Part shown: positions 28,328-30,690 of the stretch, one piece after another
Layout: every line of letters begins with the position of its first letter
Numbering within the stretch: the first letter of the stretch is position 1
The notes under the pieces: generated by a model
The model's database searches: none
Seen by the model: only the letters and a program-made list of their open reading frames with translations
Told to the model about the DNA's origin: nothing
Translations under genes and position numbers: made by a program
Source: Parachlamydiales bacterium
GTDB taxonomy: Bacteria; Chlamydiota; Chlamydiia; Chlamydiales; SM23-39
Length of the DNA stretch: 64,000 nucleotides
NCBI GenBank assembly: GCA_050302075.1
Contig: JBNLAH010000002.1
Coordinates: 132,253 to 196,252 of the forward strand
Direction of reading: 5' to 3'

Positions 28328-28496
28328 CTCCCCCCATTTTTGTGGGATAATTTTTACAAATTAAGGAATTATCAGCCATTAATATTAGTTAATTTCAGAA
28401 TAAAAATCCCTCAAATATTCACTTTAGGTTTTTTTGATTTTTACTTTCTAAAATTTAAACAAAAGACTAAGCTTTCAAGCTAAAAGAAATAAAAAT

Positions 28497-28871
28497 ATGA
28501 GAATTACTAATCCTTTTCAAAGATTTTATAGTAACCCAAAGCCAATAAAATCAACCACTTCTGGTAAGTTATGGATCAATTATACAAAGAAAATCAGCTC
28601 CTTAGAGCCATCCAGTAGCAAAAATGTCAATATTGCTATTAAAATAGCAGCTTATGTATCAACTATTTTCCTTGTAGTAACAATAATGAATATAACCCTT
28701 ATAGTAGATTTCGTAAGTTACTCATATAGTAAGATTTATGAATCATGGAAGGGAGGTAAGAAAAATATGGCCTCTGAGAGTTCTTTTTCAAATCAGCTTA
28801 TTGTCGGATCTATAGGAATATCTACAATACTGTCTTGTGTTTATGCCTTGCGCTCTTATGGAATAATCTAG
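28497..28871 (+). CDS. Small membrane protein, island family member 1
   Basis: 124 aa with a weak SD. Shares KLW.N[FY]T...N[IL]A.[RK][VI]A..V...D with ORF 30091 and the hydrophobic module with ORF 29185. Confidence 0.55.
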   Translation: MRITNPFQRFYSNPKPIKSTTSGKLWINYTKKISSLEPSSSKNVNIAIKIAAYVSTIFLVVTIMNITLIVDFVSYSYSKIYESWKGGKKNMASESSFSNQLIVGSIGISTILSCVYALRSYGII

Positions 28872-29070
28872 CAAATGGGTCGTAGTTAATTAAAATATCT
28901 AGTCATTTGATTCAAGTATATAGATCAAAAACTTTGAAAGTAATAATTAAAATTATTAATTTACAAGTTTTTAAGTAATTAACTATTAGTAGTTAAGAAC
29001 TATTTTTCAATTGTTAATTGCTAGATTAAAAGAAATTTAATTGAGTATTTATTTTTTTATTAAAAAAATA

Positions 29071-29100
29071 TTGCGTTAATAATAATAAATTTATTATACT
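29071..29100 (+). promoter_or_regulatory. Candidate promoter TTGCGT-N18-TATACT enclosing the perfect 16-bp palindrome ATAATAAATTTATTAT
   Basis: Read directly: palindrome at 29082-29097, centred about 95 nt upstream of the ATG at 29185. A related inverted repeat lies at 55413-55428. Confidence 0.3.
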
Positions 29101-29184
29101 TTTGAGTGAAAATAAAATTAAAACAAACAAGTTGTTTTAATGGTTATAATTCAACTTAAAAAATAAAATCTTTGGAGGAAGAAG

Positions 29185-29721
29185 ATGACTATAGAAATGT
29201 ACCCTGACTTTGCAGCATTAGGAAGAGCTGTACTTGGTGGAATTAATAAATTATTACCAAGCAAAAAAGGAGAATCTACTCTTTATTCAGGAAGAGTTAT
29301 AGCACACTATAAAAACTTAGCAGTTAATGCTAGCCCAACAAAAAATAAGATGGTAAATTCAGCAGCAAGAGTAGCTTTTGCTGTAGCTGCATTTATTCCT
29401 TATATGATTGCAACTATTGGTGCTGGTTTTGCTGATATAGCTGTTATGGCGTCAAAAAACCTACCTAAAGCTTATAGCTTAATTAAGAATAGATTTTCAA
29501 AAAAATCATCAGGTAAATTGCAACTTGCAGCTAGAGCTGGAGCTCAGTTTGTTTATAAAAACAGAAAGGCTCTTCTAGGTGCTTTAAGTTTTGCTATGGC
29601 TTCAGGTGCAGCTTATTATTATAAAGATGCAATTGCAGCAGATTTAAGTAGACGTGTATATGAATTTAATTTAAGTCACGCAAGTGGACTTAAATGGGCG
29701 AAAATGAGAGTTTTCGGTTAA
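29185..29721 (+). CDS. Membrane protein, island family member 2
   Basis: GGAGG lies 6 nt upstream of the ATG. 178 aa with the module AARVAFAVAAFIPYMIATIGAGFADIA and a second hydrophobic segment. Followed by a terminator. Confidence 0.7.
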   Translation: MTIEMYPDFAALGRAVLGGINKLLPSKKGESTLYSGRVIAHYKNLAVNASPTKNKMVNSAARVAFAVAAFIPYMIATIGAGFADIAVMASKNLPKAYSLIKNRFSKKSSGKLQLAARAGAQFVYKNRKALLGALSFAMASGAAYYYKDAIAADLSRRVYEFNLSHASGLKWAKMRVFG

Positions 29722-29741
29722 TCTTAATTAGAATATTTAAG

Positions 29742-29771
29742 AAAAGGGCCCTATTTTTAGGGCCTTTTTTT
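29742..29771 (+). terminator. Rho-independent terminator
   Basis: AAAAGGGCCC-tattttta-GGGCCTTTTTTT: five G:C pairs plus an A:T extension and a T-run, 20 nt after the stop. Confidence 0.75.
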
Positions 29772-29844
29772 ATTTCTAAAATTTTCTAAGTTCTAGCTTT
29801 TCTATTTATTAGTATCAATAGTTTTTAAGGTTTTGGTTTTTGGA

Positions 29845-29975
29845 ACATAGGTAGCCAAGATATTCACCCCACGTCCTTGCTATACACTAAGGTGGCTATC
29901 TGTAGCAGGTCTTGAATAGCGGCAAAAGCTGCTCTTTTGAGAGGTATTCAGCTTTAGCAGGGGAGTATTCACACA
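29845..29975. other. Orphan GC-rich (~47% by hand count) non-coding element; candidate structured sRNA or gene relic
   Basis: Stops in all frames. Helices can be drawn (ATAGGTAGCC/GGCTATCTGT; AGCGGC-AAAA-GCTGCT). Matches no RNA family I recognise. Confidence 0.25.
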
Positions 29976-30090
29976 GATTAGTTCTAAAAAAAATATATCA
30001 ATATTGCTTTTAACTTAAATGACCTGATAAAATACCGTAACATCTTTTTTTTTAAGTTTTGTTAAAAACAATATTAATATAGGTGAAAAC

Positions 30091-30492
30091 ATGCCATTAA
30101 AAAATTTACTTTTCGGCGATCATAATTATAATAGCAGATTTATAGTGTATAACAGAAAATATAACACAGAAAAACTATGGTCGAACTTCACATACATAGC
30201 TAAAAATATCAGATTGAGCAGTAATAGGACTTTAAATTTAGCTGCAAGAGTTGCTTTTGTAGTATTAGCATTCATACCATTTATTTGTTTAACTCCTTTT
30301 GTAGCATTAGCTGATATAGCAGCGATGGGCGAAAATGGGTTCAGAAGTAATTTTGGATATCCAGTTTTATTAAATCACAAAAAATCTAATTTTGACCTTT
30401 TTGTGTCTAATTTGAATTTAGTTTTAGATCATAAAATAGAAACTTTGGCGATTTCGCTATTAAGTTACATGTTGATAAAACGAATTGCATAG
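30091..30492 (+). CDS. Small membrane protein, island family member 3
   Basis: AGGTGA SD. 133 aa with the module AARVAFVVLAFIPFICLTPFVALADIA. DNA-level identity with ORF 29185 across this module. Confidence 0.65.
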   Translation: MPLKNLLFGDHNYNSRFIVYNRKYNTEKLWSNFTYIAKNIRLSSNRTLNLAARVAFVVLAFIPFICLTPFVALADIAAMGENGFRSNFGYPVLLNHKKSNFDLFVSNLNLVLDHKIETLAISLLSYMLIKRIA

Positions 30493-30600
30493 AGTCAAAC
30501 TAGCATTTTAGCATCAGTAATCCTGACGTTTAAGTTCAAGAACAGGATTTATATTTAGAAATTGCTATAAGCTTATTTATTAAATCATTATAAAATTTCT

Positions 30601-30632
30601 AAAAAGACCTGTTTTTTTAAGGTCTTTTTTTT
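30601..30632 (+). terminator. Rho-independent terminator
   Basis: AAAAAGACC-loop-GGTCTTTTTTTT. Confidence 0.7.
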
Positions 30633-30690
30633 GCTTTTAGTCTATCCTTCTTTGTAGGTCAAAAAAATCTTTTTAGGGATTATAAAAACA

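Follow-up and report, generated by a model that had tools for sequence, protein, structure and literature searches.

A clade-restricted tandem family of small membrane proteins beside an MFS-HEAT transporter in environmental chlamydiae: candidate secreted effectors with a non-canonical anchor

The inclusion-membrane (Inc) proteins of chlamydiae are recognised by a bilobed hydrophobic domain of 40–60 residues, in which two transmembrane (TM) helices of 15–32 residues are joined by a loop of 3–22 residues (threshold <30) without charged residues (Dehoux 2011, PMC3048545). A looser criterion admits proteins that have more than 40 hydrophobic residues, or two peaks of hydropathy no further than 40 residues apart (Lutter 2012, PMC3290821). 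Transmembrane substrates of type III secretion (T3S) usually carry one or two TM segments, and are reported to occupy an 'intermediate hydrophobicity niche' (Krampen et al. 2018, PMC6110835). The host-interface proteins of environmental chlamydiae have been predicted almost entirely via the bilobed-domain rule. Here, we describe an array of three tandem open reading frames (ORF1, ORF2 and ORF3) for small membrane proteins that lies between an MFS-HEAT transporter gene and proC in a 64,000 nt stretch of DNA (the window; positions 132,253–196,252, forward strand, of contig JBNLAH010000002.1, assembly GCA_050302075.1, Parachlamydiales bacterium). On the evidence of sequence comparison, the proteins belong to a previously undescribed family that is confined to a single clade, of genus level, among the low-GC environmental chlamydiae. 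We tentatively favour the view, held at somewhat less than an even chance, that they are atypical secreted, membrane-anchored effectors; if they are secreted, the bilobed-domain rule is incomplete.

That the three ORFs are true paralogues is secure at the level of sequence. BLASTP connects ORF2 with ORF3 (E=4e-10) and ORF1 with ORF3 (1e-4), and gives no pairwise detection between ORF1 and ORF2. A hidden Markov model (HMM) built from ORF2/3-type proteins alone recovers ORF1 (E=1.5e-8) and no other segment in a six-frame translation of the window, while the reciprocal HMM recovers both ORF3 (2.6e-5) and ORF2 (7.4e-5). When the two types are compared profile to profile (hhalign), the probability is 98.6%. 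An earlier sequence-only reading of the window had proposed tandem paralogues, and BLASTP, the cross-validated HMMs and hhalign agree with it. Two DNA strings that it had described as near-identical in ORF2 and ORF3 (starting at 29185 and 30091) match at 17/19 and 11/11 bases. It had placed the three ORFs (124, 178 and 133 aa) on one strand between the transporter gene and proC, and the coordinates proved exact. The array and its borders comprise the following features, with positions given in the window.

25556–28327, minus strand: MFS + HEAT-repeat transporter, 923 aa, Pfam MFS_1 and HEAT_2; left border of the insertion
28328–28496, no strand: spacer 1, 169 nt, 24.3% GC; divergent promoter region common to the transporter and ORF1
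28497–28871, plus strand: ORF1, 124 aa; ORF1-type member with orthologues P0008, P0009 and P0010
28641–28709, plus strand: module K49-x21-D71 of ORF1; hydrophobic helix core, in a helix modelled by AlphaFold2 (AF2) at residues 42–85
28872–29184, no strand: spacer 2, 313 nt, 17.9% GC; the proximal 129 nt are the conserved promoter/5′ region of ORF2
29174–29178, plus strand: Shine-Dalgarno sequence of ORF2 (GGAGG), in spacer 2
29185–29721, plus strand: ORF2, 178 aa; ORF2-type member
29368–29436, plus strand: module R62-x21-D84 of ORF2; in a continuous AF2 helix, residues 55–104
29742–29771, plus strand: intrinsic-terminator-like hairpin 3′ of ORF2, GGCCC/GGGCC stem and T7 run; kept in the sister-species locus L001
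29820–29932, no strand: GC-richer segment in spacer 3, 113 nt; a homologue 76% identical lies downstream of the sister ORF3a
30091–30492, plus strand: ORF3, 133 aa; ORF3-type member
30247–30315, plus strand: module R53-x21-D75 of ORF3
~30601–30633, plus strand: terminator-like hairpin 3′ of ORF3, AAAAAGACC...GGTCTTTTT and T-run, read directly from the sequence
30691–31503, plus strand: proC, P5CR Pfam E=1.6e-26; right border, opening a conserved proC-trxB-OMP-acpS block

The transporter gene is transcribed divergently from the array. The four spacers, found to be 169, 313, 369 and 198 nt long as had been claimed, are large compared with the median intergenic gap of 39.5 nt in the window and fall within the 10 largest of ~62. 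They had also been called very AT-rich, which holds for three of the four (spacers 1 and 2 and, at 25.3% GC, spacer 4) against 33.4% GC for the whole window; spacer 3 (30.6% GC) is not notably AT-rich because the 113-nt GC-richer segment lies within it. ORF2 and ORF3 each have a Shine-Dalgarno sequence and, as the sequence-only reading had noted, a terminator of their own, in the form of a 3′ hairpin and T-run. The region around the ORF3 hairpin is 87% conserved upstream of proC in the corresponding locus of a third species (L011). An Rfam search of the spacers returned only sub-threshold terminator look-alikes, at 29701–29776. A consensus sigma-70 scan found 10 sites against 12.4 in shuffled sequences, and as this is no excess over chance no promoter was assigned. 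Each array gene appears to be its own transcription unit, preceded by a long AT-rich stretch that is better conserved than the gene itself. Spacer 1 shares 86% and 78% identity with its counterparts in the two related species, compared with 73% and 66% for the coding DNA of ORF1, and the 129 nt before ORF2 (29057–29184) are 91.5% identical to L001, compared with 80% for the coding DNA of ORF2.

Comparison of 19 members of the family, with a mean identity of ~25%, revealed a conserved architecture. In all 19, a basic residue (Ser in one member) and an Asp are exactly 22 positions apart without indels, and this module begins at residue 48–62. The fixed spacing had been recognised in the three window proteins, where it is found as K49–D71, R62–D84 and R53–D75, and the peptides quoted for it are present. 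Nearly invariant positions are the Asp, an Asn that precedes the basic residue by four positions, an N-terminal Phe and the Tyr that closes the second helix. Upstream of the module is an SG[RK]LWxNYT motif in a conserved amphipathic helix, so that the family signature reads SG[RK]LWxNYT ... N-x-A-x-[KR]-x21-D. Downstream there is a Lys-rich linker of 28–45 residues (28 in ORF1, ~44 in ORF2), followed by a second hydrophobic stretch that is rich in Gly, Ser and Ala and bounded by Lys and Y-x-x-R. The N-terminal ~20 residues are variable and predicted to be disordered, and some relatives have variable C-terminal extensions, giving total lengths of 99–426 aa.

Helix 1, the hydrophobic part of the module, has a 21-residue core (27–30 residues at the Kyte-Doolittle threshold). 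In a simple sum on the Hessa scale, its mean dG is +0.18, compared with a median of +0.12 for the TM segments of the window's polytopic membrane proteins, while helix 2 is marginally hydrophobic (mean simple-sum dG +4.3), with which the Kyte-Doolittle scale agrees. AF2 models made with the family alignment were all-helical for both ORF1 and ORF2, with the module as one continuous helix. For ORF2 (mean pLDDT 68.9) helices were predicted at residues 9–23, 34–47, 55–104, 111–125 and 127–177, and for ORF1 (pLDDT 60) at 21–34, 42–85 and 97–120, with residues 1–20 below pLDDT 50. A span of 22 helical residues covers about 33 Å, so the simplest reading of the fixed spacing may be a membrane span of constrained length that has the basic residue at one interface and the acidic residue at the other. 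The sequence-only reading had instead likened the stretch to a hairpin hydrophobic domain with a central Pro/Gly. The single continuous helix speaks against a hairpin in the 27–30-residue stretch, as does the lack of a central Pro in ORF1-type members; Pro/Gly is found in ORF2 and ORF3, and neither residue occurs in the ORF1 module. It had also described a polar N-terminus; the first 25 residues have an STPNQ fraction of 0.39, compared with 0.23 (SD 0.08) in window proteins, and a D+E fraction of 0.05, compared with 0.11.

The family is small. An exhaustive HMMER profile search of 1.84 billion proteins, representatives at 50% identity (cut-off E<=1e-3), yielded 16 relatives of 99–426 aa, all on low-GC contigs, and word-seeded searches of 5.8 billion clusters found seven clusters, which are the three window proteins and their orthologues. 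Across all member-bearing contigs the GC content is 28–33%. Where neighbours are visible, they are either the MFS-HEAT transporter (L001–L003, L011, L021–23, L040) or tandem copies of the family (L012, L019), and tandem arrays are found in L001–3, L011, L012 and L019. A scan of genome contigs with the family alignment gave no relative. The ORFs and their relatives had no meaningful match in Pfam, NCBIfam, PHROG or PADLOC, in line with the earlier remark that the signature of the module was not recognised from described Inc families; the PHROG matches were weak (E >= 0.006), disagreed with one another and came from the TM segment, and the best Foldseek match of the ORF2 model to the PDB had an E-value of 2.1. 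With 16 relatives in 1.84 billion, the family is not a widespread bacterial inner-membrane protein, the outcome that would have told against an Inc-like role. The window organism is itself a chlamydia, judging from its transporter and a CesT-family chaperone: relatives of the transporter in GTDB representative genomes occur only in metagenome-assembled genomes (MAGs) of Chlamydiae/Parachlamydiales, at 31–38% identity. The largest member, the 426-aa P0021 (L013 2587–3867), lies outside the array and comes from the same samples as the sister species; its C-terminal domain of ~300 residues is of unknown type and has no sequence match in Pfam, NCBIfam or the PDB.

The history of the site was examined in 51 loci recovered by a metagenome scan with the transporter alignment. 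The window transporter is 90% identical to its orthologue in L001 and 84% identical to that in L011, and 30–50% identical to those in ~50 other chlamydial loci. The family HMM matches only loci in which the transporter is at least 81% identical to that of the window; ~47 more distant transporter loci are without the family, so the transporter can do without it. Of 40 chlamydial loci that are more distant, about 30 have the transporter divergently adjoining (proC)-trxB-OMP(-acpS) with short spacers. Set against this arrangement, comparison of the loci shows the 2.4-kb array to be a clade-specific insertion into a junction that is conserved across much of the phylum.

An insertion that is AT-rich and has its own terminators, encoding small basic proteins with one strong TM segment, could also be the remnant of a phage or mobile element, or could specify small membrane proteins with a lytic or toxic action, for example holins or type-I-toxin-like peptides. 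We consider this very improbable. Neither PHROG nor PADLOC gave a meaningful match, the locus is devoid of features of lysis, integrase, transposase or tRNA genes and of bounding repeats, and the array occupies the same site in three species whose synonymous divergence is 0.6–1.3. The proteins are also unlike holins in their conserved polar motifs at the N-terminus and in their long C-terminal extensions.

Comparison of the three species that carry the array shows that it evolves by birth and death, through tandem duplication, gene conversion and pseudogenisation. In the window the order is ORF1-ORF2-ORF3 (1-2-3b). In the closest sister species, whose transporter is 90% identical, ORF1-ORF2-ORF3a precede a truncated copy with a frameshift (1-2-3a-psi3b). 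In the third species, whose transporter is 84% identical, a gene of 126 aa is followed by ORF2-type genes of 185 and 195 aa and then by proC (1-2-2′). The N-terminal portion of this truncated copy in the sister (L002 3017–3215; also in L004 and L006) has ~93% DNA identity to window ORF3 and is preceded by a homologue of the 113-nt segment, which is missing from the sister ORF2-ORF3a spacer. From this identity and the position of the segment, window ORF3 corresponds to the sister pseudogene, while the intact ORF3a of the sister has no counterpart in the window. The 113-nt segment is probably a relic of array rearrangement. It has no second copy in the window, and a structured RNA was ruled out, as it has no stable fold (z = -0.3 to -0.7, thus about 0) and no Rfam match.

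Relative to the sister species, dN is 0.24 for ORF1, 0.22 for ORF2 and 0.11 for ORF3, compared with 0.053 for the transporter, and the corresponding dN/dS values are 0.32, 0.73, 0.32 (ORF3 against P0006) and 0.09. The array genes are therefore constrained yet fast-evolving. The fairly high dN/dS of ORF2 and the pseudogene in the sister species are what might be expected if these were decaying or chance ORFs in an AT-rich spacer, but three intact array ORFs are present in each of three species with dN/dS <1, the motif is invariant and the module free of indels in 19 sequences at ~25% identity, and Shine-Dalgarno sequences, terminators and promoter regions are conserved. A lack of function is accordingly the least probable explanation considered here, and even taken together with the holin/toxin explanation it accounts for only a small part of the probability.

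A strong rival, though one that we would still not call probable, is that these are ordinary, non-secreted small inner-membrane proteins with one or two TM helices, acting as envelope or developmental-cycle factors or as accessory or regulatory subunits of the MFS-HEAT transporter. Helix 1 is fully TM-competent, matching in hydrophobicity the polytopic membrane proteins of the window. In the AF2 models it is one unbroken helix, and the canonical Inc hallmark is absent. The charge distribution can be read both ways. Insertion by Sec/YidC under the positive-inside rule fits poorly with two positive flanks, and in this family both flanks of the module are net positive (+5 to +12 on the N-terminal side; mostly net positive over the following 30 residues), so that either orientation in the inner membrane is awkward. 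The N-flank is the more positive and is compatible with an N-in orientation, but the rule would have to be broken for either the Lys-rich linker or the basic C-terminal part to cross the membrane. The genomic setting is similarly divided: the array divergently adjoins the transporter, sharing its promoter region, in 3/3 species that bear it, and the tightly conserved upstream regions suggest housekeeping-grade regulation, but the synteny is confined to the genus-level clade (transporter at least 81% identical). A dN 2–4 times as high as in the transporter, together with the gain and loss of genes and a pseudogene, would be unusual for a core envelope component, and the variable C-terminal extensions also count against one. 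If the proteins are merely bacterial envelope components, they make up an ordinary lineage-specific orphan family.

Under the effector interpretation that we favour, the proteins would be exported by the chlamydial type III system through a predicted N-terminal signal and anchored in the inclusion membrane or another host membrane by the helix of fixed length, helped by the second one. The variable C-terminus would be displayed to the host cytosol, as would the conserved N-terminal helix. Each membrane interface would be marked by one residue of the invariant basic and acidic pair, which lie 22 positions apart, and the proteins would be functional analogues of Inc proteins with a non-canonical anchor. 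In favour of this are the restriction to one clade, the tandem arrays with their birth and death and fast divergence, and a chlamydial host with T3S. Variable C-terminal extensions behind a conserved N-terminal anchor, and N-termini that are rich in STPNQ and poor in acidic residues, point the same way, as do the genes for bilobed-domain proteins found beside the orthologous transporter in other lineages (L051, L052 and L054). The composition and predicted disorder of the N-terminus are consistent with a T3S signal, and are not diagnostic of one.

Several observations weigh against this interpretation. The bilobed Inc domain was not found, as there is one strong hydrophobic segment and a weak second one that follows 28–45 Lys-rich residues later, compared with uncharged Inc loops of 3–22 residues. 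Hydrophobicity is no more than marginal in the second helix (+4.3, compared with +0.18 in helix 1). Helix 1 itself equals inner-membrane segments of the window in this respect (0.18 vs a median of 0.12) and lies outside the T3S intermediate niche, so the reduced TM hydrophobicity expected of T3S membrane substrates is not seen. No chaperone gene adjoins the array, the N-terminal signal rests on a crude measure of composition, and the confidence of the AF2 models is modest (pLDDT 60–69, pTM 0.35–0.42). The more specific proposal, that these proteins form a new class of chlamydial membrane effectors secreted by the type III system, whose anchor consists of a [K/R]-x21-D helix of strictly fixed length and a distant helper helix in place of the bilobed hairpin, is in our view rather unlikely.

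A CesT-family type III secretion chaperone is encoded elsewhere in the window, at 57083–57595 on the plus strand (Pfam E=3.2e-24). It adjoins a gene for a 433-aa protein of no known family with hydrophobic N- and C-terminal segments (55655–56956, plus strand), and the two are possibly a chaperone and its effector. A distant chlamydial MAG (L008 1305–2474, plus strand) encodes a 389-aa protein with a Cys/His-rich, RING/U-box-like N-terminal part and a long hydrophobic C-terminal half rich in Gly, Ala and Ser, which is a possible effector. In the other chlamydial metagenome contigs with genes for bilobed-domain proteins (L052 3369–5171; L054 4822–5833; L051 4021–4509), these lie directly upstream of the orthologous transporter and are co-directional with it; they specify proteins of 273, 129, 269 and 162 aa, and in L052 and L054 a gene for a conserved TM2-domain protein precedes them.

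At the 5′ end of the transporter gene in the window (28325–28340) there is a G6 homopolymer, and an upstream ATG (reverse complement of 28335–28337) is one base off-frame from the GTG start at 28327. In the sister species the protein begins MGGMPIVQ and MGRYPIVQ, in frame. The G6 tract could be a sequencing error or a phase-variable tract, or the gene could simply start at the GTG. Downstream of the transporter gene (24351–25559, minus strand) are genes for a 140-aa cNMP-binding protein, which overlaps the transporter stop by 4 nt, and for a 234-aa protein of no known family. Both are kept in all three related species (L001 4238–5447; L011 22–1226), which suggests an operon coupling the transporter with cyclic-nucleotide sensing. 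Elsewhere, the window contains a bacterial small SRP RNA (41687–41784, minus strand; Rfam RF00169, 51.1 bits) and, in the stretch 43082–44138, ruvB, and no tRNA gene lies within its 64 kb.

The gene order from 12172 to 28327 is pdhABC, a 306-aa membrane protein, lpxD-skp-bamA-recR, fabH-fabD-fabG-acpP, the 234-aa ORF, the cNMP-binding protein and the MFS-HEAT transporter, followed by the array. We take this order to be mirrored by CT247 to CT234 in C. trachomatis, where incC (CT233) and incB (CT232) presumably come next, an adjacency that literature searches did not confirm. Were this so, the array would sit at the junction equivalent to that of incB/incC. Any relation of the array to the incB/incC junction would be positional and not homologous, since incC is reported to be confined to Chlamydiaceae and incB to Chlamydia and Chlamydiifrater (PMC10448858).

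Whatever the proteins do, the locus is a clean natural case of effector-like gene birth and death within a junction conserved across the phylum, and one in which conservation is higher in the regulatory DNA than in the coding DNA. If the effector interpretation is true, catalogues of Inc proteins that rely on the bilobed criterion overlook some of the inclusion-membrane proteome in environmental chlamydiae, and the site beside the MFS-HEAT transporter, with its bilobed genes in other lineages and presumably incB/incC beside CT234 in Chlamydia, would be a recurrent cradle of host-interface membrane proteins across the phylum.

The sequence-only reading had put the three proteins forward as Inc-like candidates, and this is partly supported. 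The Inc interpretation is plausible as an analogy, given the chlamydial host, clade restriction, tandem arrays, fast evolution and an N-terminal composition like that of T3S signals, but membership fails on the defining structural feature, the bilobed domain. Inc proteins (e.g. IncD-G and the CT222–229 arrays) and the array family are both restricted to Chlamydia-group organisms and lack homologues elsewhere; for the array family, no homologue of known prokaryotic function was found, and the 16 low-GC relatives have chlamydial neighbours where these are visible. Both are small proteins with a hydrophobic anchor that starts ~50–60 residues in, behind a polar, T3S-signal-like N-terminus, and both form tandem arrays of paralogues with rapid divergence and variable C-terminal parts. 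Unlike Inc proteins, the array family lacks the 40–60-residue bilobed domain, has a marginal second helix and conserves a polar N-terminal motif. ORF1-type members come nearest to the looser criterion of Lutter.

No sequence similarity to IncA (PF04156), IncB, IncC or any other described family was found. The inter-helix loops of IncB and IncC are, as in the array family, unusually long, at 15–22 residues (PMC3048545); the Lys-rich linker of the array family has 28–45. The layouts are different: CT233 has 178 aa with TMs at 100–127 and 140–164, and CT232 has 115 aa with TMs at 31–61 and 67–90. Orthology with IncB or IncC was rejected, as the architecture differs and the profile search gave no Chlamydiaceae-sized set beyond the 16 clade members.

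T3S transmembrane effectors (Tir, SseF/SseG and translocators) resemble the array family in that their one or two TM segments follow an N-terminal signal or a region for chaperone binding. The array family differs from them in that the hydrophobicity of helix 1 is not reduced and a cognate chaperone gene is not adjacent. The bilobed proteins of L051, L052 and L054 have true bilobed C-terminal domains and no sequence similarity to the array family, and their genes are co-directional with the transporter whereas the array is divergent. Both groups are nevertheless small, lineage-specific membrane proteins encoded at the same junction beside the MFS-HEAT transporter.

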